This document shows positions 26,992 through 39,412 of a stretch of 64,000 nt of DNA, piece by piece. Position 1 is the first letter of the stretch; each line of letters opens with the position of its first letter. This stretch comes from Desulfobacterales bacterium (GTDB lineage Bacteria > Desulfobacterota > Desulfovibrionia > Desulfovibrionales > Desulfothermaceae). The notes beneath the pieces were generated by a model. It made no database searches. It saw only the letters and a list, made by a program, of their open reading frames with translations, and was not told the DNA's origin. The stretch covers positions 1,694 through 65,693 of the forward strand of contig JAMOPG010000233.1 of the NCBI GenBank assembly GCA_027064715.1, in the 5' to 3' direction. Made by a program: the position numbers and the translations under genes.

Positions 26992-27408
26992 TTAATGTCC
27001 ACCACTTCCCAAAATTCCTGATGCAGCTAATAGTAACACCAATACTTCAACTGTTGCAATTGCAGTATACACTTTTTCACCTTCTTTTAAGTATGCTGGT
27101 ATCAAAGTTAGGTATCCAATTATTGTAAGTGCCCCTAGAATGGCAATTCCTATAAAATTTAAAAAATCTCCTTTCCCTAGCATTGTTATCCAAGTCCATC
27201 CAGGTTGAATATTTGTCTGTTTTAAGAATTCATCTACAGGAAGATGCCATAGGTGCTCAATGGTCTTTATTGGTATATAAGGATCCATAATACCAAAAAT
27301 ATATAATAGATATGTTATAATCATAAGTGCAATACTTCCCCAACTTCCCCAAAATAGTATTTCAGCATAAAGAAGCTGTTCTGGTCTTACTTTAACCTTA
27401 TTATTCAT
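26992..27408 (-). CDS. Small membrane protein (DUF1634-like partner of TauE/SafE)
   Basis: 138 aa with 3-4 TM segments, directly downstream of the TauE-like permease, as is common for DUF81/DUF1634 pairs. Confidence 0.55.
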   Translation of the reverse strand: MNNKVKVRPEQLLYAEILFWGSWGSIALMIITYLLYIFGIMDPYIPIKTIEHLWHLPVDEFLKQTNIQPGWTWITMLGKGDFLNFIGIAILGALTIIGYLTLIPAYLKEGEKVYTAIATVEVLVLLLAASGILGSGGH

Positions 27409-27438
27409 AATTATACCTCCAAAGATATATTTTATTTT

Positions 27439-28395
27439 TTAATGACCAAGACCCTTTAAAAGTGCTTTTCCCCCTGCAAATATAAGTACCCCTATTACCA
27501 GATAACGAATAAGGGCAGGTTTGGCCTTAGCAAGGATTTTTACTCCTACAATAGATCCCAGCATAAGCCCAATAATAGAGGGGATAGTAATAAGCGGAAT
27601 CACGCAACCTCTATTTAAATAAATCCAGGCAGCAGAGGTGTCTGTAATGGAGAGCAAAAACTTACTAGTTGCAACAGCGATCTTTAAAGGTACACCCATA
27701 ACTAGATTTAAAACAGGGAGATTTGCCCAACCAGCCCCGAGACCAAACATACCAGCCACTGTTCCTATAAAGATAAATAAAATAAGACCAGCAAGGGTAT
27801 TTTTGGTCTTCCACTCAATAATTTGTCCTGTAGACTCTTCTAAATAGCTACCATGTAACCCAAGGGCGAGACCAATGGCATCTTGTTTAGTTACCACAGG
27901 GTATTCCACATTTTTTGAAGTAAGTAATAATACTGCTATAAAGAGTATTGTAGCTCCAAGTAATATTTGGACAATGTTAGTAGGGAGGGATAAACCTAAA
28001 AACGCACCACCAATGGCAGATGTAGAAGCAATTAATGCAACAGGAAGGGCCAATCTTAGATTTGCTAGGTTTCGTTTAAGTAATCCTGGTCCAGCAGCTA
28101 ATGCTCCAGAAAGAGCAACAAAAAGGCCTGCTCCTCTCACAAAATCTAAATGAAATGGGAAAAAGGCTGAAACCAAGGGCACATATAAAACTCCTCCTCC
28201 CACACCTGCTAATACAGCAATTATACCTAATACAAAGCAGAAAATGAAAAGAATAGCTGGCCAAAACCACCAGGGCTTTGTTGCAGCTGCAGTTTTAGCA
28301 CTAGCAGTTTCTGCACAAAATCCATACTGAACTATAAAAAATAAAAACAACAAAATAAATAAGAGAATCATAGAGTTAACAAACCTATTTCTCAT
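27439..28395 (-). CDS. TauE/SafE (DUF81) family sulfite/anion exporter
   Basis: Glycine-rich repeated TM pattern (VLAGVGGGVLYVPL ... GMFGLGAGWANLPVL), typical of DUF81. Confidence 0.75.
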   Translation of the reverse strand: MRNRFVNSMILLFILLFLFFIVQYGFCAETASAKTAAATKPWWFWPAILFIFCFVLGIIAVLAGVGGGVLYVPLVSAFFPFHLDFVRGAGLFVALSGALAAGPGLLKRNLANLRLALPVALIASTSAIGGAFLGLSLPTNIVQILLGATILFIAVLLLTSKNVEYPVVTKQDAIGLALGLHGSYLEESTGQIIEWKTKNTLAGLILFIFIGTVAGMFGLGAGWANLPVLNLVMGVPLKIAVATSKFLLSITDTSAAWIYLNRGCVIPLITIPSIIGLMLGSIVGVKILAKAKPALIRYLVIGVLIFAGGKALLKGLGH

Positions 28396-28628: not shown

Positions 28629-30662
28629 CTATATTAAAACTAGATCCATTGTTTCTATGAGTTCTTTTATAAAGATAATTTTTAAGTCTTGAGTTAAGGA
28701 ATTTGGGATTGTAGTAAAGTCTGGCTCGTTTTTTTCTGGAAAGATTACAGTTTTTATACCAGCAAGTTTTGCTGCAAGTAATTTTTCTCTAATACCTCCC
28801 ACTGGTAACACTCTTCCTGACAAAGTAATCTCTCCTGTAAGTCCAATATCTCTTTTGCATTTTTTGCCTGTTATTAGGGAGATTAGAGATGCGAAGATGG
28901 GCACTCCAGCAGATGGTCCATCCTTTGGTATGGCACCTGCTGGGACGTGTATGTGTATATCGTGTGATTTAAAAAAATTATTATCAATATCAAATAGATG
29001 GGCATTGGACTTGATAAAACTAAGTGCTGCTTGAGCTGATTCTTTTAAGACATTGCCTAGAGATCCAGTTAAAATTAGTTTGTCTGATCCTGGCATTTTC
29101 GTTGATTCTATAAATAATATTTCACCGCCATATGGGGTCCATGCAAGGGCTGTTGCCACTCCAACTCTATCTTTTACATCTAATATAGTGGGCTTATATT
29201 TGGGCGGTCCAAGGAGATTTTCCACATCCTTTGATGTAATTTTTATATTTTTGTTTTCACCAAACTCTTTATTCACAATTTTTCTCGCAGTTTTTCTAAG
29301 TATAGAGGATACTTGCCTGTGTAGGTTCCTAAGCCCTGCTTCTTTTGTATATTCTTTTATAATCTTTTTTATTGCTTCGTGTTCAAATACTATATTGTAG
29401 TCTATTAAACCATTTTCTTTTATTTCTCTTGATATTAAGTGCCTTTTGCAAATTTCTATCTTTTCTTCTTCCAAGTATCCATGAACAGGTATTATCTCCA
29501 ATCGATCCAGAAGTGGAGCTGGGATTGTGTCAGTGGTATTTGCTGTTGCAATAAACATTACCTTTGAGAGATCAAAGGGTATATCCAAGTAATGGTCCAC
29601 AAAGTTTTTATTTTGGTGCGGATCTAAGATTTCAAGTAAAGGTGCAGAGGGATCGCCTTTAAAATCCTGTCCAATTTTATCTATTTCATCTAACATAAAC
29701 ACAGGATTTTTGGATCCAGCCCTTCTTATCTCCTGTATAATTCTACCTGGAAGAGCGCCTACATAACTCCTCCTATGCCCTCTAAGCTGGGCTTCGTCTT
29801 TTACACCAGCCAAAGAGATCATGATAAAGTTTCTATTCATACTTTTGGCAATTGCAGCTCCTAAAGATGTTTTTCCAGTTCCAGGAGGACCAACAAAACA
29901 TAAGATAGGTCCTTTTGATTCAAACTCAACTAGCTGATTCTCTAATGCATTTTCAACTGTGGATATGAGCTCATCGAGTTTGATTGGTTTTGATAAAAAA
30001 TGAAAAGATCCCTTTTTTAATGCCTCTACTGCGCTGGATACAGTGGCATAACCAGTGATAATAATAACTTCTGTTGAAGGACTTGCCTTTTTAGCAGCAT
30101 CAAGTACTGAGAGTCCATCAACCTCCTTCATTTTAAGATCAGTAATTATTAGATCAAAATTTATCTTGTTTATATAGTTTAATGCTTCTTCACCACTAAG
30201 TGCTCCATACACCTCATATTCCTTTTTCTCTAAAACATGCTTTATGTTCATGCATGTGAGCTTTTCATCATCCACAACTAAAATTTTAAATCTCTTTTGA
30301 GACTTTAAGATCCTTACAGCAAGGTGTTCCAAGATCCTGTCTTTAATTTCTTGAAGCCCATAATGATACATATCCAATATTTCAGCAGCCCTGTTTAAAT
30401 CAAGATTGTCTTTGGTTAAGGTATTCCAGGGGAGAGAGAGAAGATAATCTATATAATTTATCCCAATTGTGTATTCTGCAGAAGATTCAGAGACATATTT
30501 TATCCTGTCTAACTCCTTTAATGCAGCCTTTGCCACATAATCAGGAAGATCTTTTTCCATTATTTCCTTTCTGAGCTTAGAAAGTTCAGAGAAGCCTTCT
30601 TCCACTTCATTTGATTTTTTAACTGGTGCTTCTTTATTCTCTTTTTTATTAAAAAAGATCAT
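28629..30662 (-). CDS. lon: Atypical Lon protease: no LON N-domain, CheY-like receiver inserted before the AAA+ module
   Basis: Reading order: HYGLQEIKDRILEHLAV, then the receiver (FKILVVDDE...DLIITDLKM...IIITGYATVSSAVEALKKGSFHFLSKP), then Walker A GPILCFVGPPGTGKTS, Walker B FMLDEIDK, protease Ser PKDGPSAG and Lys GGIREKLLAA. The ORF is open to 30683, but GGAGG precedes the ATG at 30662. Confidence 0.85.
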   Translation of the reverse strand: MIFFNKKENKEAPVKKSNEVEEGFSELSKLRKEIMEKDLPDYVAKAALKELDRIKYVSESSAEYTIGINYIDYLLSLPWNTLTKDNLDLNRAAEILDMYHYGLQEIKDRILEHLAVRILKSQKRFKILVVDDEKLTCMNIKHVLEKKEYEVYGALSGEEALNYINKINFDLIITDLKMKEVDGLSVLDAAKKASPSTEVIIITGYATVSSAVEALKKGSFHFLSKPIKLDELISTVENALENQLVEFESKGPILCFVGPPGTGKTSLGAAIAKSMNRNFIMISLAGVKDEAQLRGHRRSYVGALPGRIIQEIRRAGSKNPVFMLDEIDKIGQDFKGDPSAPLLEILDPHQNKNFVDHYLDIPFDLSKVMFIATANTTDTIPAPLLDRLEIIPVHGYLEEEKIEICKRHLISREIKENGLIDYNIVFEHEAIKKIIKEYTKEAGLRNLHRQVSSILRKTARKIVNKEFGENKNIKITSKDVENLLGPPKYKPTILDVKDRVGVATALAWTPYGGEILFIESTKMPGSDKLILTGSLGNVLKESAQAALSFIKSNAHLFDIDNNFFKSHDIHIHVPAGAIPKDGPSAGVPIFASLISLITGKKCKRDIGLTGEITLSGRVLPVGGIREKLLAAKLAGIKTVIFPEKNEPDFTTIPNSLTQDLKIIFIKELIETMDLVLI

Positions 30663-30760
30663 TCTACCTCCAAAAAGTGTCATTGATGTCTCTTCTTTTT
30701 ATATTAAATTATAGAGCACCAAAAGTGAAGTATTTATTGTTGATTTTGTAATGTTTAAAG

Positions 30761-30789
30761 ATGCAACATTTATATTAAAACTGTTGCAT
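30761..30789. promoter_or_regulatory. Candidate enhancer (UAS) palindrome ATGCAACA-N13-TGTTGCAT
   Basis: Perfect 8-bp inverted repeat about 150-170 bp upstream of the sigma-54 promoter. Further TGTTG(C/T)(A/G) copies at 30796, 30853 and 30923. Confidence 0.45.
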
Positions 30790-30933
30790 TTTTATTGTTG
30801 CGTTGGTAACTATTTAAATTTAAATGATAAAATGGAATTTTAAAAATAATCATGTTGTATTTTGCAATAATATAATGTCTGTAAAATGTGGTGTTACAAT
30901 ATTATTTTTAATGAAAACAATATGTTGCAAATT

Positions 30934-30949
30934 TGGCACCTTGTTTGCT
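30934..30949 (+). promoter_or_regulatory. Sigma-54 (-24/-12) promoter
   Basis: TGGCAC-cttgt-TTGCT fits TGGCAC-N5-TTGCW with correct GG/GC spacing. It lies about 35 nt upstream of the ATG at 30984. Confidence 0.65.
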
Positions 30950-30983
30950 GATACAGTAGCAAAGAGAAAAAAGGGGGTATAAG

Positions 30984-31160
30984 ATGTTGAAAAAAGAAAA
31001 AGTTTTAAAAAAACTTGAAAGGATTATGGTAGCAGTGACCTTTGCAGAGGCAAATCTACATGAGGAGTCAGTAAATATCTTGAATGAAGATAAAGAGAAG
31101 AGGGTGGAAAAAGGGATAAGGATTGAGAAAAAACAGCAAAGGCCACAAATTAGATTGTAA
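30984..31160 (+). CDS. Unannotated 58-aa ORF (below the ORF-track cutoff)
   Basis: AAGGGGG RBS 6-7 nt upstream of the ATG. Translation is MLKKEKVLKKLERIMVAVTFAEANLHEESVNILNEDKEKRVEKGIRIEKKQQRPQIRL. It shares the AVxFAE..H motif with the next two genes. Confidence 0.5.
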   Translation: MLKKEKVLKKLERIMVAVTFAEANLHEESVNILNEDKEKRVEKGIRIEKKQQRPQIRL

Positions 31161-31191
31161 CATTTTGGTTTTGAGTAATAGGAGGTAAGAG

Positions 31192-31674
31192 ATGGGGAAG
31201 ATATTGGTGGTCAGTAATGGTATCTATCCTGATCTACAAAGTGTGAGTTATACAGTGGAGCTGGCCACCTCCTTAAACTCACAAGTAGAAATCTTAGAGG
31301 TTGTGCCAAAAGATCAAGGGATAGCTTTTTTAAACAGGAAAAAAAGTCTTTTGGGTGCTGTAAAGTCTTTGATGGAAGATGTGTATGTTGCTGTTGGTTT
31401 TGCAGAAGAAAATCAGCATGACATTGCCAAAGAGATTATAAATGAAGCAGTTATGAATCTTCATCCTTATATTACTAAGTTGAAGAATTGTGGAATCCAT
31501 GCACGTCTAGTGTTAAAAAGTGGTGAATTCTTAAAAGAGACAAAAGATTTTATAAGGAAAAATAAAGATATATTGATGGCAATTTTGGCTATTAAAAAGG
31601 ATAAAAAAAGCCAATTTTATCTTGATAGGTTGAAAAAAGAAGTAGACATACCAATTATAATGGTTGGAACTTAA
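31192..31674 (+). CDS. Universal-stress-protein-like (degenerate USP fold) protein
   Basis: AGGAGG RBS. A USP-like start (KILVVSNG...ELATSLNSQVEILEVV) and end (DIPIIMVG), but no clear G-2x-G-9x-G(S/T) ATP motif. Confidence 0.5.
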   Translation: MGKILVVSNGIYPDLQSVSYTVELATSLNSQVEILEVVPKDQGIAFLNRKKSLLGAVKSLMEDVYVAVGFAEENQHDIAKEIINEAVMNLHPYITKLKNCGIHARLVLKSGEFLKETKDFIRKNKDILMAILAIKKDKKSQFYLDRLKKEVDIPIIMVGT

Positions 31675-31697
31675 TAATTTTTAAAAGGAGGTTAGGT

Positions 31698-32252
31698 ATG
31701 GGGCTTTTTGATATATTCAAGAAAAAGGCAAATGAGGCAAAAGAAGAGATAATTAAATACCAGGAGGCAGTTGCATTTGCTGAGGAAGGAGAACATGGCG
31801 AAGCGAAACGGCGTATGAAAAAAGATACTTCTTTAGGTGATGTAAAGTCCATTTTATTAGTTGTGGGTAATGGCAATTCTTTTGGAAAAGATGTGATTGA
31901 ATATTCTATAGAGATGGCAAAAAAGTTTAATTATAAAATTGTTGCTCTAAATGCGGCTCCGATTGGTGATGATTTACCTGTAAAAAGTAATGAAAGGAGA
32001 AAACTTAGAGAAGAATTTATGGAAAAATGTAACTTATCAGCAGAAAATTTTAGAGATCTTGCTGAAAAACAAGGAATAGAGCTTGAACATGTAGTGAAGT
32101 TTTTGAACAAAGATGATGCTCTAGAAGAGATCAAAAGAGAGATACCAGGGATTGAATTTGTTATATCAGATAAAGAAAGAGATTTTGTACCATGTACATC
32201 GGAAAATAGGGCAAGTAAGAGACCATCTGTATGTGTTTATTCAATGGTATAA
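31698..32252 (+). CDS. USP-like protein with an N-terminal helical extension
   Basis: AGGAGG RBS. SILLVVGNGNSFGKDVIEYSIEMAKKFNYKIVALN resembles the first USP strand-helix-strand. The N-terminal extension carries AVAFAEEGEH. Confidence 0.5.
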   Translation: MGLFDIFKKKANEAKEEIIKYQEAVAFAEEGEHGEAKRRMKKDTSLGDVKSILLVVGNGNSFGKDVIEYSIEMAKKFNYKIVALNAAPIGDDLPVKSNERRKLREEFMEKCNLSAENFRDLAEKQGIELEHVVKFLNKDDALEEIKREIPGIEFVISDKERDFVPCTSENRASKRPSVCVYSMV

Positions 32253-32279
32253 AAAAGGGCCTGAGATTGGCCCTTTTTT
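32252..32279 (+). terminator. Rho-independent terminator
   Basis: AAAAAGGGCC - tgagatt - GGCCCTTTTT, directly after the stop at 32250-32252. Confidence 0.7.
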
Positions 32280-32309
32280 ATAATTTGGTTAAGGAGGTGA
32301 CATAGGAAA

Positions 32310-32402
32310 ATGGATATGGCATTTTATTTAAAAATTTTACTTGTTATAGTAACTTTTGGTATTTGTTTTTTGTTTAAGGAAGAAAATAAAAAAAGCAAAT
32401 AA
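32310..32402 (+). CDS. Candidate 30-aa hydrophobic peptide ORF
   Basis: AAGGAGGTG upstream. Translation is MDMAFYLKILLVIVTFGICFLFKEENKKSK (one TM segment plus a charged tail). It is bracketed by two terminator-like hairpins. Confidence 0.3.
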   Translation: MDMAFYLKILLVIVTFGICFLFKEENKKSK

Positions 32403-32446
32403 TTATCTTATGGGTAGGACGCCTTAATCCTTTTGTTTTTCTCAAA

Positions 32447-32477
32447 CCCTCTCTTAAAAAAGAGGGGATTTTTTTAT
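32447..32477 (+). terminator. Terminator-like hairpin
   Basis: CCCTCT (32447-32452) pairs with AGAGGG (32461-32466), followed by GATTTTTTT. Confidence 0.55.
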
Positions 32478-32516
32478 CTAATGTTCAAATTATTCTAGTT
32501 GAAAGGGGAGGATAGT

Positions 32517-34331
32517 ATGACGCAGGACATGCTCCTTACAATGATTGTTTTAGGATTTGTTATTTTCCTGTTTGTATCTGAATGGGTAAGGGTAGATGTA
32601 GTGGGAATTATGATGATGGTGCTTTTACCACTTATGGGGTTAGTCACTCCATATGAAGCATTTTCTGGTTTAAGTTCCAATGCAGTTGTTTCAATTATTG
32701 CGGTAATTATAATTGGTGCAGGACTTGATAAAACTGGTGTTATGAATAAGGTTGCCAGTCCAATAATAAAACTGGCAGGCAACAACGAAAAGAGAATTAT
32801 AACCCTGATATCTGGTACAGTAGGAATTATCTCATCCATGATGCAAAATATTGGAGCAGCAGCACTATTTTTGCCAGCAGCTCAAAGAATAGCAAAAAGG
32901 ACCGGAGTTCCAGTATCTAGAATACTCATGCCCATGGGTTTCTGTGCAATAATTGGAGGTACCATAACTTTGGTAGGTGCAAGTCCAACCATTTTACTAA
33001 ATGATCTAATGGTCTTAAATGGACAAAAATTAAAACCTTTTGGGCTTTTTACTCAAACTCCAATTGGTATCTGTCTATTGGCAACTGCAATTATCTATTT
33101 CTCCTTTTTTGGCAAGTATGTACTCCCAGCACGAGAGGGACAGGCCGAAAAAGGGATATCTGATTTATTGATGGAAGCATATAGAGGGCTTGAAAGTGTT
33201 TTTGAGTTAGAAGTTCCTGAAGACTTTGGTAAGGCAAAGACATTGGAAGAGCTGGCAATTCGAGAGCGCTTTTTAGTGACAGTTGTGGGAATCTATTCAA
33301 ATAAAAGGAAATACAAGACTTTGGTGCCAAGATCTTCTGATACAATACAGGGCGGAGATGTCATAGCAGTTGTTGGAGCAAAGAAAAATGTAGAACTACT
33401 GACAAGAGAATTAAATTTAGTATTAAAGCCACAGTTAGAGGTCTTTGCTGAAGATCTAGCAAGGACAAATGCAGGACTTGCTGAGACCATAGTTTCACCA
33501 AGGTCAGAGTTAATTGGTAAGACCTTAAGCGAAGTTAAATTTAAGGAATTATTTGGTGTAAATCCTGTGGCCTTGTTCAAGGGAAACAAGATCTTTTACG
33601 CTGGACTTACAAATATTAGACTAAGCATGGGAGATACCCTTTTGCTCTTTGGCCCCTGGGAAAAGTTTCATATTTTAAAAAATAGGCCACAACCTAGACC
33701 ACTTAGTTTTGCATCACCATTAGAAGGAGAAATTTTAAAACCTCAAAAGGCAAAATGGGCTGTGTTTTGGCTGGCACTTGCACTTTTTCAAATTATCTTT
33801 TTTAAGGTAAGGTTGTCTGTGGCACTTATGTCTGGAGCCCTTGGAATGATCTTGACTGGTGTCCTTACAGTGGATGAGGCGTATCAGTCCGTTGACTGGA
33901 TGACAGTATTTTTACTTGGAGGACTTATTCCCTTGGGTATTGCATTTGAAAAGACAGGAACAGCGTCTTTTATTGCCCATAAGATTTTAGAAGTAATTGG
34001 AAAGCCTTCACCAATTGTCCTTCTTACAGTAGTGGCAGTCCTAACATCATTTTTTACACTTGTCATATCCAATGTGGGTGCAACAGTACTTCTGGTACCC
34101 TTATGTATGAATATGGCTGTAATGGCAGGAGCAGATCCAAGAATGGCTGCCCTTGTAGTGGCTCTTTCTGCTTCAAATACCTTTGTGTTACCCACTCATC
34201 AGGTGAATGCACTTATTATGAGACCTGGTGGTTATAGGACTGTTGATTATGCAAAGGCTGGAAGTATAATGACGGTCTTGTTCCTTGTTGTGGAATTGTC
34301 TGTCTTATATTTCTTTTATGGAATCCAATAA
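32517..34331 (+). CDS. SLC13/DASS-family anion transporter with two central TrkA-C (RCK_C) domains
   Basis: Polytopic N- and C-terminal halves flank a soluble region with two RCK_C-like repeats (GKTLEELAIRERFLVTVVGI ... GDVIAVVG and GKTLSEVKFKELFGVNPVAL ... GDTLLLFG). GGAGG precedes the ATG at 32517; the ORF is open from a TTG at 32499. Confidence 0.85.
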   Translation: MTQDMLLTMIVLGFVIFLFVSEWVRVDVVGIMMMVLLPLMGLVTPYEAFSGLSSNAVVSIIAVIIIGAGLDKTGVMNKVASPIIKLAGNNEKRIITLISGTVGIISSMMQNIGAAALFLPAAQRIAKRTGVPVSRILMPMGFCAIIGGTITLVGASPTILLNDLMVLNGQKLKPFGLFTQTPIGICLLATAIIYFSFFGKYVLPAREGQAEKGISDLLMEAYRGLESVFELEVPEDFGKAKTLEELAIRERFLVTVVGIYSNKRKYKTLVPRSSDTIQGGDVIAVVGAKKNVELLTRELNLVLKPQLEVFAEDLARTNAGLAETIVSPRSELIGKTLSEVKFKELFGVNPVALFKGNKIFYAGLTNIRLSMGDTLLLFGPWEKFHILKNRPQPRPLSFASPLEGEILKPQKAKWAVFWLALALFQIIFFKVRLSVALMSGALGMILTGVLTVDEAYQSVDWMTVFLLGGLIPLGIAFEKTGTASFIAHKILEVIGKPSPIVLLTVVAVLTSFFTLVISNVGATVLLVPLCMNMAVMAGADPRMAALVVALSASNTFVLPTHQVNALIMRPGGYRTVDYAKAGSIMTVLFLVVELSVLYFFYGIQ

Positions 34332-34386
34332 TCAACCCAGTCTTGCTGTTGGTAGAAAATGATAAGTATAAAAGGAGGAGGGATAA

Positions 34387-34485
34387 ATGGCAATAATAAC
34401 TATCTCCAGAGAAAGTTATAGTTTTGGAAAAATAGTTGCTGAAAAAATAGATGCATATCAGGCTGCAAATCCAGTATCATCTTAG
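34387..34485 (+). pseudogene. 32-aa stub resembling the N-terminus of cytidylate-kinase-like family proteins
   Basis: MAIITISRESYSFGKIVAEKI resembles the MxIITISRExGSGGxxIAxxL start of that family, with the P-loop glycines lost. It terminates after 32 codons. Confidence 0.3.
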
Positions 34486-34606
34486 TTAGACAAGACTATT
34501 GAACAATAGTATATTAGATGATATGAAAATTGAATTTTGTAATAAATTAAAACAAATATCCTATGTAACAGACATTTATATTCATTTATGGGAGTGATAA
34601 ATTCCT

Positions 34607-36019
34607 ATGTTAAGAATTAGTCTTAGAAATAAAATTTTAATTACATTTTTTATACTTTTTGTTATTTCTTTCTTTATCTGTTTTTATGGATTTTATAACT
34701 ATAATAAATTGAACTATAAAATAGCAGTATTAGAAAAAAAGACAACTTTACTAAACTATATACTTGAAGCCAGAAGGCATGAAAAGAATTTTTTTATAAC
34801 TCGTGATAAGGTTTATTTAAAAACTGCGCTGGAATTTTTAAGAAAATCAGATTCATTAATTAATACTATACTAAAAGAGTATAAAGAATACATGGAGTTT
34901 CACAATTTTGATATAGTACAACAAATACTGTTAGAATATGAAAATGCCATTAAATCTCTCCAGCAAAAAGTTGAGGCAGGGTATAGCGTTGATTTAAAAG
35001 AAGCGGAATATGTAAGACAAAAGGGACACATTATAACAACAAAACTGGAGGAAGCAATAAACAAGGAAAAGGGAGCCATACGCATTCTTATTGAAAAGTC
35101 CAGGGATTATCTATTCTTGAGTGTGTTTTCAATGATTGGTGCAACAATAATTGTTTTGATCTTTTTGATCATAAATGTCATCTGTCCCTTGAAAGAGATT
35201 GAGGATGCAATAAAGAAGATTAGTACAGGTGATTATGAATTAATTCCAGATATTAAATCAGGAGATGAATTTGAAAGGCTGGCTGAAAGGCTAAATACCC
35301 TTTTATCTGATATAAAAAGGAGAAATGAACAACTTGTACAAAGTGAGAAGATGGCAGCTTTGGGTACATTGACTTCTGGAGTGGCACATGAGCTCAATAA
35401 TCCTTTGAACAACATATCTACCTCTCTTCAGATTGTTCTTGAAGAAATTGATGAAGGGGATATAGAATATCAAAAAGAGCTTTTGAGGGAGGCCTTGAAA
35501 CAGGTTGATAGGGCACAAGATATAGTTAAAAGTTTACTGGAGTTCTCAAGAGAGACTGAATTTAGCGTAAGTGAAGAAAATTTACGTCAGTTGGTAAATA
35601 ATACATTAAAATTAATTCAAGGAGAATTACCAGCCAATGTCTATGTTGATGTAGATATCCCTGATCACATCACTGCAAAAGTGGATCCCAGACGCATACA
35701 ACAGGTTTTTTTAAATCTGTTGTTAAATGCAATACAGGCCATGGAAAAAACAGGTGGACATATATATGTGAGGGCTAGAAGAGATGAAGAACAAAAAGGG
35801 GTGGTAATAGAGGTTGAAGATACTGGACCAGGGATCCCTGAAGAGATAATAGGAAAGATATTTGATCCTTTTTTTACTACAAAGGAAGTAGGAAAGGGAT
35901 CAGGGCTTGGTTTATCTGTTTCACAGGGTATAATTAGCCAACATGGAGGGACAATATCTGTCTGGAGTAAGGTTGGGGTAGGCACAAAATTCACCATATT
36001 TTTGCCAGATAAAAAATAG
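34607..36019 (+). CDS. Sensor histidine kinase (2 TM, HAMP, HisKA, HATPase_c)
   Basis: H-box SGVAHELNNPLNNI, an N-box-like region LLLNAIQAM, G-boxes DTGPGI and GSGLGLSV, and a HAMP region around CPLKEIEDAIKKISTGDYE. Confidence 0.88.
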   Translation: MLRISLRNKILITFFILFVISFFICFYGFYNYNKLNYKIAVLEKKTTLLNYILEARRHEKNFFITRDKVYLKTALEFLRKSDSLINTILKEYKEYMEFHNFDIVQQILLEYENAIKSLQQKVEAGYSVDLKEAEYVRQKGHIITTKLEEAINKEKGAIRILIEKSRDYLFLSVFSMIGATIIVLIFLIINVICPLKEIEDAIKKISTGDYELIPDIKSGDEFERLAERLNTLLSDIKRRNEQLVQSEKMAALGTLTSGVAHELNNPLNNISTSLQIVLEEIDEGDIEYQKELLREALKQVDRAQDIVKSLLEFSRETEFSVSEENLRQLVNNTLKLIQGELPANVYVDVDIPDHITAKVDPRRIQQVFLNLLLNAIQAMEKTGGHIYVRARRDEEQKGVVIEVEDTGPGIPEEIIGKIFDPFFTTKEVGKGSGLGLSVSQGIISQHGGTISVWSKVGVGTKFTIFLPDKK

Positions 36020-36034
36020 AGGTTTGTTAAAATC

Positions 36035-37393
36035 ATGGAAAATAGAGAGTTTGAGATTTTAGTTGTGGAAGACGAAGAAATTGCCAGGAAAAATCTGGAG
36101 AGGATTTTGATTAAAGAAGGTTACAGGGTAACAAGTGTGCCCAGCGGATATGAAGCAATAGATAAATTGAAGGAACAGGAGTTTGACCTTGTTGTTACAG
36201 ATCTGAAGATGGAAGGCATTGATGGAATGGAAGTGCTTAGATATGTAAAAGAGAATTTTCCACATACTGAAGTTATAATGATTACAGGTTATGCCACTGT
36301 GGATTCTGCTGTGGAGGCCATGAAAAGTGGGGCATTTCACTATATAGCCAAGCCTTACAAATTGAATGAAGTTAGGATGATAGTAAAACAAGCCCTTTCT
36401 AAAAGAGAGCTTCAGCTTGAAAATATTAAGTTAAAAGAAAAATTGTCTAACAATAAGAGTTCAGTGGTTTTAATTGGAAAGTCAAAGCCTTTTTTATCTG
36501 CACTGGATACAGCAAAACAAGTGGCTCCCACAGATGCAAATGTGTTGATCTTAGGGGAATCAGGTACAGGCAAGGAACTTGTTGCAAAATATATACATCA
36601 GATGAGCAAACGGGCAAAAAATAATTTTATTGCCTTTAATTGTGGTGCGCTTACAGAAGAATTGATGGCAAATGAGCTATTTGGGCATGAAAAAGGGGCA
36701 TATACTGGTGCTGATTCAGTAAAAAAAGGACTACTTGAAGTGGCACATGGTGGAACCCTTTTTTTAGATGAAGTGGGGGATATGCCCTTATCTATGCAGG
36801 TGAAGCTGCTTCGTGCAATTCAAGAAAGGGAAATATTAAGGGTTGGAGGAACAACTCCTATTAAGGTAGATGTGAGATTCATTGCTGCAACACATAGAAA
36901 CCTTCAAAAAGAGGTGGAAGAAGGAAATTTCAGACAGGATTTGTACTATAGATTAAACGTCGTGACCATAAAGCTTCCACCTTTGAGCGAACGAAAAGAA
37001 GATATTCCTTTACTGGTTAATCACTTTATACGCCAAAAATCTAAGGAAATGGAAAAGAATGTAAAAAATATTACAAAACAGGCAATGGATGTATTATTAA
37101 AATATTCATGGCCTGGAAATGTAAGGGAATTAGAAAATGTAATAGAACGAGCAGTGGCTTTGGCTCAAGGTGATGTTATAGATGTGGATCTACTCCCAGA
37201 CTATGTGCAGATGTATGAGGTTCATACCTTTAGAAGGGATGATTCTGACATCCCTACACTTGAGGAGATAGAGAGGGATTATATATTATGGGTATTAAAA
37301 AAATGCGGTGGCAATAAATCCCAGGCTGCAAAGATAATGGGTATTGATAGAGTCTCGTTGTGGCGTAAGTTGAAAAAGTGGATTAATAAGTAG
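36035..37393 (+). CDS. Sigma-54-dependent response regulator (NtrC family: REC-AAA+-HTH)
   Basis: Receiver ILVVEDE...VVTDLKM...KP. Walker A GESGTGKE, GAFTGA-loop variant GHEKGAYTGA, Walker B LFLDEVGDM. Fis-type HTH at the C-terminus (GNKSQAAKIMGIDRVSLWRKLKK). Confidence 0.92.
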   Translation: MENREFEILVVEDEEIARKNLERILIKEGYRVTSVPSGYEAIDKLKEQEFDLVVTDLKMEGIDGMEVLRYVKENFPHTEVIMITGYATVDSAVEAMKSGAFHYIAKPYKLNEVRMIVKQALSKRELQLENIKLKEKLSNNKSSVVLIGKSKPFLSALDTAKQVAPTDANVLILGESGTGKELVAKYIHQMSKRAKNNFIAFNCGALTEELMANELFGHEKGAYTGADSVKKGLLEVAHGGTLFLDEVGDMPLSMQVKLLRAIQEREILRVGGTTPIKVDVRFIAATHRNLQKEVEEGNFRQDLYYRLNVVTIKLPPLSERKEDIPLLVNHFIRQKSKEMEKNVKNITKQAMDVLLKYSWPGNVRELENVIERAVALAQGDVIDVDLLPDYVQMYEVHTFRRDDSDIPTLEEIERDYILWVLKKCGGNKSQAAKIMGIDRVSLWRKLKKWINK

Positions 37394-37395
37394 GA

Positions 37396-38703
37396 TTATA
37401 CGGGTTTTTCCATTAAGTTATAAATTATTTCTCCCAAAAATCTCACTTTCATATCTAATTCATAAAATTGTACAATATCTTCAAGTCCACTATGACAATT
37501 ATGGCAGGGTGCAATTACAATCTTAGCCCCAGTCTTTTTTAGTTGTTCTGCCTTTACTTTATTGCCTTTTACCCTTTTTTCTTTATATATTGGGCCACAA
37601 TTAATAACACCACCCCCTGCTCCACAACAGATATTGTGCTCTTTATTTGGATACATTTCTATTATGTTTTCACACAAATAAGACACAACCTCTCTAAGCA
37701 GGTTATGAAGTCCTCTGCCTCTAGATATATTACATGGATCATGAATCGTAACAGGCTCTTTTATTTTTTCTCTTATTTTTATTTTGCCTCTTTTTAATAG
37801 ATAAGCTAAAAATTCTACAGCATGTATAACCTTTATTGGATAATATTTCCATCCCAACTGTCTATTGATTGTATCGTACACGGACCTAAATGCATGTCCA
37901 CATTCACACATTACAATATAATTACATTTTAGTTTCAAAGCTGCTTCAAAATGAGAACGTTTTAATTGTTGAGAAATTGTATCATCCCTTACATACATTG
38001 CCATGTCACTGTTATCCCAGCCTGGTTGAGATGACATTGTCCAATTTACTTTTGCAATATTAAATATGCTGGACATATAATAAATCAACTCTGGGCTAAA
38101 TTTGGGTTCAGGTGCAATGACAGAGTACATAAAATCTGCACCAACCTTATCTATTGGGATTTCTCCCCAGGGAAATTCCCCTCTTAATTCTTCTTCCTGC
38201 CATTTTAGGGTATCTACCCATTCATCATCCTTTACCCACATTTGATTAAAAAAGGCAGCATGGGAATTTACAGTGTCTTGAATATATTGGGGAACCATCC
38301 CAATTAAACAACAAATCCTTCTTACTACAGACATCAAATAAGCAGTATCTATCCCCATAGGGCAATACAGAACACATCTTTTACAAAGAGTGCATTCAGT
38401 AAAGGCAATTTCAGCTATTTTTGCCATCTCAATTGGTGTTATTTCACCATTTTTCTTTATTATTTTTTTTAAGGTATTTTTTACCTTCCCCACAGGGGAA
38501 TAGTAGGGATCAAAGTTGTGGGATATACAAAAATGACACGCATTAAAACACATGCCACAGTTAATACATGATGATAGATAGAATTTTAATCTACTGCCGT
38601 TCTCTTTATTCAGCACCTGATCAACAGCATTTTTGATATCTTGAGTAGATATTTGTTGGCTAACTTTAATCAGATGACTATCTGTTATTTCAATGGATTC
38701 CAT
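37396..38703 (-). CDS. HdrD/DsrK-like iron-sulfur protein with CCG domains
   Basis: Two ferredoxin-type cluster motifs (CINCGMCFNAC, CTLCKRCVLYCP) and CCG-type cysteine motifs (HDPCN, CCGAGGG, PCHNCH). AGGAG precedes the ATG at 38703; the ORF is open to 38757. Confidence 0.8.
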   Translation of the reverse strand: MESIEITDSHLIKVSQQISTQDIKNAVDQVLNKENGSRLKFYLSSCINCGMCFNACHFCISHNFDPYYSPVGKVKNTLKKIIKKNGEITPIEMAKIAEIAFTECTLCKRCVLYCPMGIDTAYLMSVVRRICCLIGMVPQYIQDTVNSHAAFFNQMWVKDDEWVDTLKWQEEELRGEFPWGEIPIDKVGADFMYSVIAPEPKFSPELIYYMSSIFNIAKVNWTMSSQPGWDNSDMAMYVRDDTISQQLKRSHFEAALKLKCNYIVMCECGHAFRSVYDTINRQLGWKYYPIKVIHAVEFLAYLLKRGKIKIREKIKEPVTIHDPCNISRGRGLHNLLREVVSYLCENIIEMYPNKEHNICCGAGGGVINCGPIYKEKRVKGNKVKAEQLKKTGAKIVIAPCHNCHSGLEDIVQFYELDMKVRFLGEIIYNLMEKPV

Positions 38704-38740
38704 AATAGAAACTCCTATATTTTGAGATAGTTGAATTATT

Positions 38741-39412
38741 TTACCAATCATAGACATTTCTTATTCGTCCAAATTCAGATCCTATATATCCTCTTAAGAT
38801 TGGTGCAAAAATTATATGTGATAATTTGGTAATGGGTATTAAAATAATTAGAAGCTCACTTAACAATATGTGAGTGCAAATAAAAAATTTATAATTAATG
38901 AATTGATGGTAAGAAACAAAACCTGTAAAAAGTACTAAGAAGCACAAACATATCAAAAAATAATCTTGAAAAGTACTTATATATCTTATTTTTTTGTCTA
39001 TTATTCTTCTTATAAAAAGATAAGCAGCAGAAATCAAACCCACAACTGTGAATATATCTGATATAGTTTCTGATAATGTAAAATAACTTATTCCCCATGA
39101 CATTCGTATTAGTATTACATGTGCTGTTAAAAAGATTGGTATAAGAAAAATAGATATGTGAAATAGGATAGTAGCTATTGTGAAGGGAATATTTTGTCGC
39201 CAACTTTTTGCTAAAAAAAGAATATTCCATGCAACAATAGATCTAAATGCATAACCTATATGATAATACCTCAATACTTCTGGATCTTTATTTTTAGATA
39301 GAAAGAAAAAATATAAAATTTTTATAATAAATCCTATAATTAATATGCTAAATGATATCCATGCCATAGGACCTATTAAAAAGCTATAAATGATGTTCAT
39401 AACAGTCTCCAT
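38741..39412 (-). CDS. DsrM/NarI-like integral membrane (heme b-type) subunit
   Basis: 223 aa with about 5-6 TM segments and conserved-looking histidines in TM helices (LFHISIF, TAHVIL, CTHILL, KLSHII). It is coupled to the HdrD/DsrK-like gene. Confidence 0.6.
   Translation of the reverse strand: METVMNIIYSFLIGPMAWISFSILIIGFIIKILYFFFLSKNKDPEVLRYYHIGYAFRSIVAWNILFLAKSWRQNIPFTIATILFHISIFLIPIFLTAHVILIRMSWGISYFTLSETISDIFTVVGLISAAYLFIRRIIDKKIRYISTFQDYFLICLCFLVLFTGFVSYHQFINYKFFICTHILLSELLIILIPITKLSHIIFAPILRGYIGSEFGRIRNVYDW

Follow-up and report, generated by a model that had tools for sequence, protein, structure and literature searches.

This report concerns a gene for a Lon protease with a built-in receiver (REC) domain and the two-component genes that lie near it in a stretch of 64,000 nucleotides of Desulfobacterales bacterium DNA (contig JAMOPG010000233.1 of assembly GCA_027064715.1), which is called the window throughout. 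The gene for this protein, REC-Lon, stands alone on the minus strand; genes for Usp-like proteins and an anion transporter, and after them genes for a histidine kinase (HK) and a sigma-54 activator of the enhancer-binding protein (EBP) type, run on the plus strand (Table 1). The open reading frames (ORFs) named in a first-pass annotation of this DNA were all recovered where it had placed them, and both coordinates and Pfam matches agree with its account of a DASS transporter with RCK_C domains between the two halves of the locus. The annotation had also counted a single kinase gene in the locus, and this gene proved to be the sole HK gene of the whole window, which likewise holds one EBP and only two REC domains, those of Lon and of the EBP. 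A trio of this kind has been described in Desulfovibrio vulgaris as a 'three-component system', consisting of DVU3303 (REC-Lon), DVU3304 (HK) and DVU3305 (EBP) (Rajeev 2011, PMC3333781).

Table 1. Features of the REC-Lon locus, in window coordinates
Feature	Position	Strand	Basis or remark
REC-Lon, 684 aa	28629-30683	-	ORF, Pfam
Inserted receiver of Lon, residues 128-255	29919-30302	-	Pfam, 3m6a alignment, AlphaFold2 model
Lon/58-aa-ORF intergenic region, 300 bp	between 30683 and 30984
Candidate enhancer (upstream activating sequence, UAS) region, GTTGC/GCAAC half-sites	30753-30868		resemblance to DVU3305 site
Candidate sigma-54 promoter, TGGCAC-N5-TTGCT	30934-30949	+	divergent from Lon, faces 58-aa ORF and Usp-like genes
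Conserved 58-aa ORF, first gene after the sigma-54 promoter	30984-31160	+	sequence, ribosome-binding site (RBS)
Usp-like protein 1, 160 aa	31192-31674	+	weak paralogue of Usp-like protein 2
Usp-like protein 2, 184 aa	31698-32252	+	weak Pfam Usp match, E = 0.0015
Terminator-like hairpin, 14 pairs and T run	32248-32282	+	directly 3' of Usp-like protein 2
Second terminator-like hairpin	32448-32467	+	upstream of DASS transporter
DASS/CitMHS anion transporter, two TrkA_C (RCK_C) domains	32499-34331	+	Pfam; NCBIfam dass
Membrane HK, 470 aa: two transmembrane segments, HAMP, HisKA, HATPase_c	34607-36019	+	Pfam
Sigma-54 activator (EBP), 452 aa: Response_reg, Sigma54_activat, HTH_8	36035-37393	+	Pfam

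The receiver within Lon

Pfam divides the Lon protein into a receiver (Response_reg, residues 134-243), an ATPase domain (AAA, 261-397), Lon_lid and Lon_C (E = 1e-80). When the protein is aligned with LonA of Bacillus subtilis (3m6a, E = 1e-168), residues 32-127 correspond to chain positions 8-103, and residues 256-683 correspond to positions 106-530. Because LonA is contiguous where the window protein has 128 additional residues, the receiver is a clean insertion, and it sits between the N-terminal helical bundle and the first AAA+ strand (beta1) of LonA. The AAA+, lid and S16 protease domains align end to end with those of canonical LonA proteins (Escherichia coli, B. subtilis), and the helical bundle is kept. 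The window protein differs from these relatives in the 128-residue receiver insertion and in the lack of the LAN N-domain: Pfam gives no match to the LAN substrate-recognition domain (PF02190, LON_substr_bdg) in Lon, and residues 32-127 match only the helical region of the N-terminal part of LonA. An AlphaFold2 model (68 homologues; mean pLDDT 80.7) places a (beta-alpha)5 receiver at residues 133-253, with tethers of 4 and 6 residues. The first 29 residues of the listed ORF are disordered in the model. Conservation in the family begins at Met8 (MIFF..., ATG at 30662), so that translation probably starts there and not at the listed 30683.

Four receiver residues never vary across the 68 REC-Lon homologues, namely D138 and D139 (the acidic pair), the phospho-acceptor D182, and K232, and at least 90% of the homologues have T210; the residues of the EBP that align with this pocket are E13, D14, D57, T85 and K107. 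Equally invariant in the 68 homologues are GPPGTGKTS (Walker A), MLDEIDK (Walker B), PKDGPSAG with Ser591, and Lys634, and the pore-loop region is invariant across the family as well. Judged by these residues, REC-Lon looks like a phosphorylatable receiver mounted on a working ATP-dependent protease. The closest receiver of solved structure is that of Aquifex aeolicus NtrC1 (PDB 1zy2, E = 1.9e-21), and NtrC1/DctD-type activators resemble REC-Lon in having a REC directly N-terminal to an AAA+ ring-forming module. In NtrC1, a dimeric linker keeps the AAA+ domains apart. The linker between REC and AAA+ in Lon, in contrast, has about 6 residues and no coiled-coil, and so the NtrC1 mechanism is not simply transferable.

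REC-Lon is a very large and old family in sulfate reducers and their relatives. The best 120 matches to the window Lon in a collection of 5.8 billion proteins all have the REC, AAA and Lon_C architecture with at least 59% identity, and they come from Desulfonauticus, Desulfobacula, Desulfobacterales and many metagenomes. Orthologues with 59-88% full-length identity are abundant, and the REC is present in every one of these 120. A second search, with a REC-Lon from Desulfocurvus (Desulfovibrionaceae) as query, again returned only REC-Lon proteins among its top 120 matches, including Humidesulfovibrio. The family passes the generic NCBIfam lon equivalog TIGR00763 (score 710, cut-off 608), and neither Pfam nor NCBIfam has a model dedicated to it; for this reason REC-Lon proteins are labelled plain 'endopeptidase La' or 'response regulator' by annotation pipelines. 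A survey of serine protease architectures (PMC2605481) does not mention the receiver-Lon combination, and a literature search found no paper with REC-Lon biochemistry. In one metagenome-assembled genome, REC-Lon is spread over three reading frames (L028:9824-11878; related loci are given L numbers here), and either frameshifts have made this copy a pseudogene or the assembly is wrong here.

Kinship and linkage of the two receivers

The first-pass annotation had counted about 58 identities over 115 positions in a hand alignment of the two receivers, and the count is reproduced by a gap-free alignment with 58 of 116 positions identical (59 of 126 by BLASTP, E = 9e-41). This similarity clearly exceeds the background given by a panel of 131 receivers from the window and related loci, mostly recovered through a shared TD[LF]KM..DG pattern. 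Because such a panel favours the receivers most similar to that of Lon, it provides a stricter test of nearest relatives. Mean identity in the panel is 53% among Lon RECs and 51% among orthologous EBP RECs; between a Lon REC and an orthologous EBP REC it is 47.9% within a genome and 45.8% between genomes, and it falls to 36% for Lon RECs against other EBP RECs and 33% against other RECs. Identity of Lon RECs to E. coli NtrC and CheY is about 30%. The nearest non-Lon receiver of each Lon REC in the panel is an orthologous (DVU3305-type) EBP REC. The relationship is reciprocal in profile searches, since a Lon-REC profile has only orthologous EBP RECs among its 25 best non-Lon matches, and an EBP-REC profile has only Lon RECs among its 17 best non-EBP matches. 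Under a column bootstrap, the other family stays nearest for 19.2 of 20 Lon RECs and for 24.3 of 26 EBP RECs, and the ordering of the group distances is kept in 500 of 500 replicates. Only one conserved column distinguishes Lon RECs from EBP RECs, and the derived residues IARxNL of helix alpha1 are common to both families. Helix alpha1 is the kinase-contacting surface of the receiver in known two-component pairs. The Lon and EBP receivers are read here as what appears to be a single REC subfamily whose members sit on two different output proteins.

Tree building speaks against this reading. With 131 RECs and 121 columns, a joint clade of Lon and EBP RECs was recovered in 4 of 300 neighbour-joining (NJ) bootstrap replicates. 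Neither family is monophyletic in the NJ tree, where the two interleave; the smallest clade that holds all Lon RECs consists of 20 Lon and 24 EBP RECs and nothing else. Rogue sequences in the tree include the EBP RECs of L014 and L016, and the NJ clade test was replaced by the nearest-neighbour, group-distance and reciprocal-profile tests described above. The outgroup panel for all of these tests is incomplete, its loci being those among the matches listed in the genome scan described below. The two receivers are thus specifically related at the level of reciprocal best REC families, but not as a strict NJ clade. A search of the whole library with the Lon REC alone is uninformative about the nearest single REC, because its ranking by summed score gives the first 150 places to proteins with 2-6 receivers.

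Taken literally, the first-pass annotation implied a recent local duplication or gene conversion, in which the EBP REC of this very genome was copied into Lon. Same-genome pairs of Lon and EBP RECs are indeed slightly closer than shuffled pairs (47.9% versus 45.7%, permutation p = 2e-4). However, a recent copy does not fit an excess of only two points, which could come from shared composition or from co-evolution with a common kinase. The window's own EBP REC is not the closest EBP REC to its Lon REC, as those of other genomes reach 50%, and the abundant REC-Lon orthologues described above all have the REC. Recent local duplication is rejected as very improbable on these grounds. Identity within genomes is barely above that between genomes, which argues that the duplication is ancient and not local; from the sequences, the best explanation would be one duplication that gave rise to both RECs before the system spread among Desulfobacterota and Nitrospirota. 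What survives of the proposed duplication into Lon is therefore the specific relationship of the receivers, while the event itself does not belong to this genome, the family being large and old.

To follow the conservation of the neighbourhood, an alignment of the region around the REC-Lon junction was used to scan GTDB, with a single genome for each species. The scan yielded at least 19 loci with a full-length REC-Lon, along with many receiver-only matches. Among the matches listed, 17 of the 19 loci have orthologues of both the HK and the EBP no more than 10 kb from REC-Lon, so that the linkage of kinase, EBP and REC-Lon considered in the first-pass annotation extends to related genomes in two phyla. 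One of the two exceptions (L002) reaches a contig end, and the other (L006) holds an activator fragment only. The taxa include Desulfobacter, Desulfonema, Desulfococcaceae, Syntrophobacter, Desulfomonilaceae, Desulfovibrionaceae and Desulfocurvus, and also Desulfocapsaceae, Desulfobulbales and Thermodesulfovibrionales (Nitrospirota). The linkage is also present in a Desulfonauticus-like genome (L083) with a gene order identical to that of the window, and an 88%-identical relative has even the outer neighbours in common with the window.

A further locus, L082 (GCA_054035815.1), is arranged in another way. Its REC-Lon (L082:10001-12025) is 67% identical to the window protein and keeps all phospho-acceptor residues, and the divergent operon is intact. 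No HK is found at L082:4514-6530, where a full-length Cytidylate_kin2 gene takes its place, and the activator orthologue is a protein of 323 aa without a receiver, 70% identical to residues 145-449 of the window EBP. An intact REC-Lon is thus kept here with neither a local HK nor the REC of the EBP, which counts against a fixed assignment of both receivers to one neighbouring kinase. The arrangement implies that the two arms can be uncoupled and that the Lon receiver can depend on a kinase elsewhere.

The persistence of REC-Lon in L082 would also suit a quite different explanation of the locus, in which the REC similarity is generic to the NtrC subfamily, the Lon receiver is served by an unlinked kinase, and the neighbourhood is coincidental. 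The RECs of bacterial EBPs are broadly alike, to the point that some non-orthologous ones are 51% identical to a Lon REC, and HK-EBP pairs with no REC-Lon within 10 kb occur in L017-L019, L021, L022, L025, L026 and L043. Nevertheless, the Lon and EBP RECs are reciprocal best families that stand about 10 identity points above other TDLKM-type RECs, and coincidence is hard to square with the linkage in 17 of 19 listed loci from two phyla. In addition, DVU3303, DVU3304 and DVU3305 have pairwise cofitness values above 0.9 in D. vulgaris (Trotter 2023, PMC10102598). A generic similarity combined with chance proximity is therefore quite unlikely.

Control region and relation to the three-component system

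The REC of the EBP occupies residues 8-117 and is followed by strong Pfam matches to Sigma54_activat (E = 5e-73) and HTH_8 (E = 5e-15). The protein also has a heptad-like L..EN..L linker, which is typical of NtrC1/DctD-type activators. Its sigma-54 contact loop (residues ~221-226) reads GAYTGA and not GAFTGA, a variant shared by 3 of 26 orthologues; the loop of DVU3305 is GAFSGA in the published account (PMC3333781).

The candidate promoter between Lon and the 58-aa ORF, TGGCACCTTGTTTGCT (30934-30949, plus strand), is the sole zero-mismatch match to TGGCA-N6-TTGCW in the window. The sigma-54 promoter that the first-pass annotation had placed at 30934 is thus a unique exact match, but it is directed away from Lon. 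About 125 bp upstream of it lies GTTGCGTTGGTAAC (30797-30810), the only exact GTTGC-N4-GYAAC in the window, and GTTGTATTTTGCAAT (30854-30868) forms another part of the candidate UAS region. Two sites with a 5-bp spacer and two mismatches are present in the Lon/Usp intergenic region, along with three TGTTGCA half-sites at 30762 (-), 30782 (+) and 30923 (+), the last of which lies outside the UAS region. A DVU3305-type site with a 5-bp spacer and at most one mismatch was not found in the intergenic region of the window. The DVU3305 site validated by electrophoretic mobility shift assay is TGTTGCGATATGCAACA, and variants with a 4-bp spacer, such as GTTGCATTGGTAAC, have also been published. Over the whole 64 kb, the TGTTGCA heptamer occurs 33 times versus 10.1 expected, a count that 0 of 100 shuffles reach, and its copies are scattered throughout this length and not confined to the control region.

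The related loci contain 25 motif sites with at most one mismatch within -400 to +60 of the Lon start and 31 in the other 338 kb, so that the density of the DVU3305-type motif upstream of Lon is 31-fold above that of the remaining sequence. In ten of these loci the motif occurs as a pair spaced 85-91 bp apart (often ~88 bp), and divergent TGGCAC promoters lie beyond the motif sites. The -12 element of these promoters is TTGA or TTGT in many related loci and the canonical TTGC in the window and L002. A conserved TGGCAC-N5-(C/T)TTG(A/T) is found upstream of REC-Lon in L003-L005, L008, L009, L012, L013 and L020.

The window and D. vulgaris loci both combine a truncated, receiver-bearing Lon with one HK and one REC-AAA-HTH sigma-54 activator of ~450 aa (about 451 for the DVU protein). 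In both, an adjacent operon contains small hypothetical or Usp-type genes and an anion-type membrane transporter, and the shared intergenic region holds a sigma-54 promoter and sites of a palindromic GTTGC...GCAAC motif, those of the window being candidates. DVU3303 was formerly annotated as 'protease La, truncation', which matches the LAN-less Lon of the window. The two loci differ in gene order, since Lon, HK and EBP of D. vulgaris form one operon divergent from the Usp/transporter operon, whereas the order in the window is as in L083. The binding sites of the window are also more degenerate, and the contact loops are not the same (GAYTGA in the window, GAFSGA in DVU3305).

Much is known about the regulation of the D. 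vulgaris genes. The binding site of DVU3305 lies between DVU3302 and DVU3303, the Usp-type and membrane proteins DVU3298-3302 belong to the DVU3305 regulon, and the operons show a response to high pH, to heat and in stationary phase (PMC3333781). The authors proposed that DVU3303 may require phosphorylation for activity, and they reported that the association of the response regulator with Lon-RR (the Lon bearing a response-regulator domain), together with the binding site, is conserved in Desulfovibrio, Desulfomicrobium, Desulfohalobium, Thermodesulfovibrio, Thioalkalivibrio and Dechloromonas (PMC3333781). The regulon has been described elsewhere as 'general stress response, transmembrane transport' (Kazakov et al. 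2015). In D. vulgaris, mutant phenotypes group Lon with the kinase and activator (PMC10102598).

Based on the architecture, linkage and receiver kinship described above, the window locus is probably an orthologue of the DVU3303-3304-3305 system, with the kinase serving both receivers. The suggestion in the first-pass annotation that a single signal could control both transcription and proteolysis is the hypothesis already published for DVU3303-3305, and the high cofitness of these genes supports it genetically. The locus-level model of that annotation is the same as the published one, has been in print since 2011, and is not new.

Several other points weigh against orthology and a shared kinase. 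The window proteins are likened to DVU3303-3305 by published description and not by sequence, and the D. vulgaris protein is absent from the best 120 matches to the Desulfovibrionaceae REC-Lon query. The UAS sites of the window are degenerate, with either a 4-bp spacer or two mismatches. Terminator-like hairpins separate the Usp-like genes of the sigma-54 promoter from the transporter, HK and EBP. Finally, disruption of any one of the three genes benefits D. vulgaris in chlorate, a condition in which it requires the target DVU3299, a putative anion transporter (PMC10102598); such opposite phenotypes of the system and its target transporter are a poor fit to simple activation.

If the locus works as the published hypothesis suggests, the membrane HK would sense a signal, probably envelope- or anion-related, and would phosphorylate two receivers of one REC subfamily that both retain the same alpha1 surface. 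With the receiver of the EBP as the first target, the activator would bind the GTTGC/GCAAC sites between Lon and the Usp genes and fire the sigma-54 promoter at 30934, leading to expression of the 58-aa ORF and the two Usp-like genes. The RCK_C-bearing DASS transporter would be expressed by read-through or from a separate promoter. This activator arm would follow ordinary sigma-54 enhancer biology. With the receiver in the LAN-less LonA as the second target, phosphorylation of Asp182 would switch the ATPase/protease ring on or off or alter its choice of substrate, and transcription and proteolysis would then answer one input. The conserved phospho-acceptor site, the intact protease, the loss of LAN and the short tethers at the junction of bundle and ATPase all suggest that phosphorylation changes Lon ring assembly, ring activity or pore access.

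The Lon receiver might instead serve mainly as a phosphate sink or competitor that tunes the EBP, or as a structural pseudo-receiver, and not as a switch of proteolysis. Two receivers on one kinase necessarily compete, and the change in Lon activity upon phosphorylation is itself only a prediction. The shared sign of the phenotypes of all three D. vulgaris mutants is weakly compatible with a sink, although a sink that opposed the EBP would not predict it. On the other hand, the invariant Ser-Lys dyad, Walker motifs and pore-loop region argue that proteolysis is under selection, and the mechanically sensitive junction at which the REC is wired into the protease has tethers of only 4 and 6 residues. 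Conservation of the phospho-acceptor residues also tells against a pseudo-receiver, and this group of explanations seems rather unlikely as a whole.

Two-component control of regulated proteolysis is known from separate adaptor proteins, RssB and CpdR. These resemble REC-Lon in concept, because phosphorylation of a CheY-like receiver controls AAA+ proteolysis. However, RssB and CpdR are separate adaptors that act in trans on ClpXP, whereas the receiver considered here is fused in cis inside Lon. The NCBIfam models for the two adaptors match only the REC part of REC-Lon, with 62 bits for RssB (cut-off 700) and 69 for CpdR (cut-off 180). A bolder proposal, tentative and somewhat short of an even chance, is that REC-Lon is a directly phosphorylation-gated AAA+ protease, in which a receiver borrowed long ago from the partner activator lies wedged between the N-terminal helical ring and the ATPase ring and replaces LAN as the controlling element. 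Phosphorylation of Asp182 would then govern ring assembly, activity or the entry of substrates, and the same kinase would set how much of one stress regulon is made (via sigma-54) and how much is degraded, with the Usp-like proteins or the RCK_C transporter as possible examples. A literature search found no biochemically characterised AAA+ protease with an in-cis two-component switch. If the proposal is true, a receiver within Lon would connect a membrane sensor to protein degradation more simply and directly.

The present analysis contributes three points beyond the published hypothesis: one REC subfamily with a shared alpha1 surface for both receivers, the precise insertion point in LonA, and a conserved layout of enhancer and promoter. 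The value as a discovery is limited because the locus-level model was published in 2011; the locus adds a further member to a known, genetically supported system.

Intervening genes and outer neighbours

The 58-aa ORF behind the candidate promoter is an annotated gene in the public assembly and has a homologue in L002, and ORFs of 55-60 aa occupy the same position in L082, L083 and L084. Usp-like protein 1 has no Pfam match, and its position is kept in L082-L084. Homologues of Usp-like protein 2 adjoin REC-Lon in L001-L004, L006, L012-L014 and L016. The DASS transporter, whose likely start is at 32517, adjoins REC-Lon in L001, L002, L014, L016, L023 and L082-L084, and its D. vulgaris counterpart, by location as well as by type, is DVU3299, the 'putative anion transporter'.

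Between Usp-like protein 2 and the transporter, a 30-aa hydrophobic ORF with an RBS (32310-32402) has hairpins on both sides, and the whole element at 32248-32467 could be an attenuator or encode a small membrane peptide. A riboswitch or leader near the transporter was sought by an Rfam scan of the entire window, which gave no match at gathering score. Farther along lies a 32-aa ORF with a strong RBS (34387-34485, plus strand), whose N-terminus gives a match (E = 0.085) to positions 1-19 of Pfam Cytidylate_kin2. This ORF looks like a truncated remnant between transporter and kinase, and L082 has a full 281-aa gene there.

Next to Lon, a TauE/SafE permease is paired with a DUF1634-like membrane protein (26992-28395, minus strand). 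Such a pair is also found beside HK-EBP orthologues at L019:11551-13077 and L022:12286-13755, in Caldimicrobium and a Nitrospirae metagenome-assembled genome, where there is no REC-Lon within 10 kb. Immediately 3' of the EBP gene, at 37396-39412 on the minus strand, lies a gene for an HdrD/DsrK-like protein (4Fe-4S dicluster and CCG domain), which overlaps the gene for a 223-aa multi-span membrane protein (DsrM-like). This second pair is homologous to one located ~2.5 kb downstream of REC-Lon in L010.

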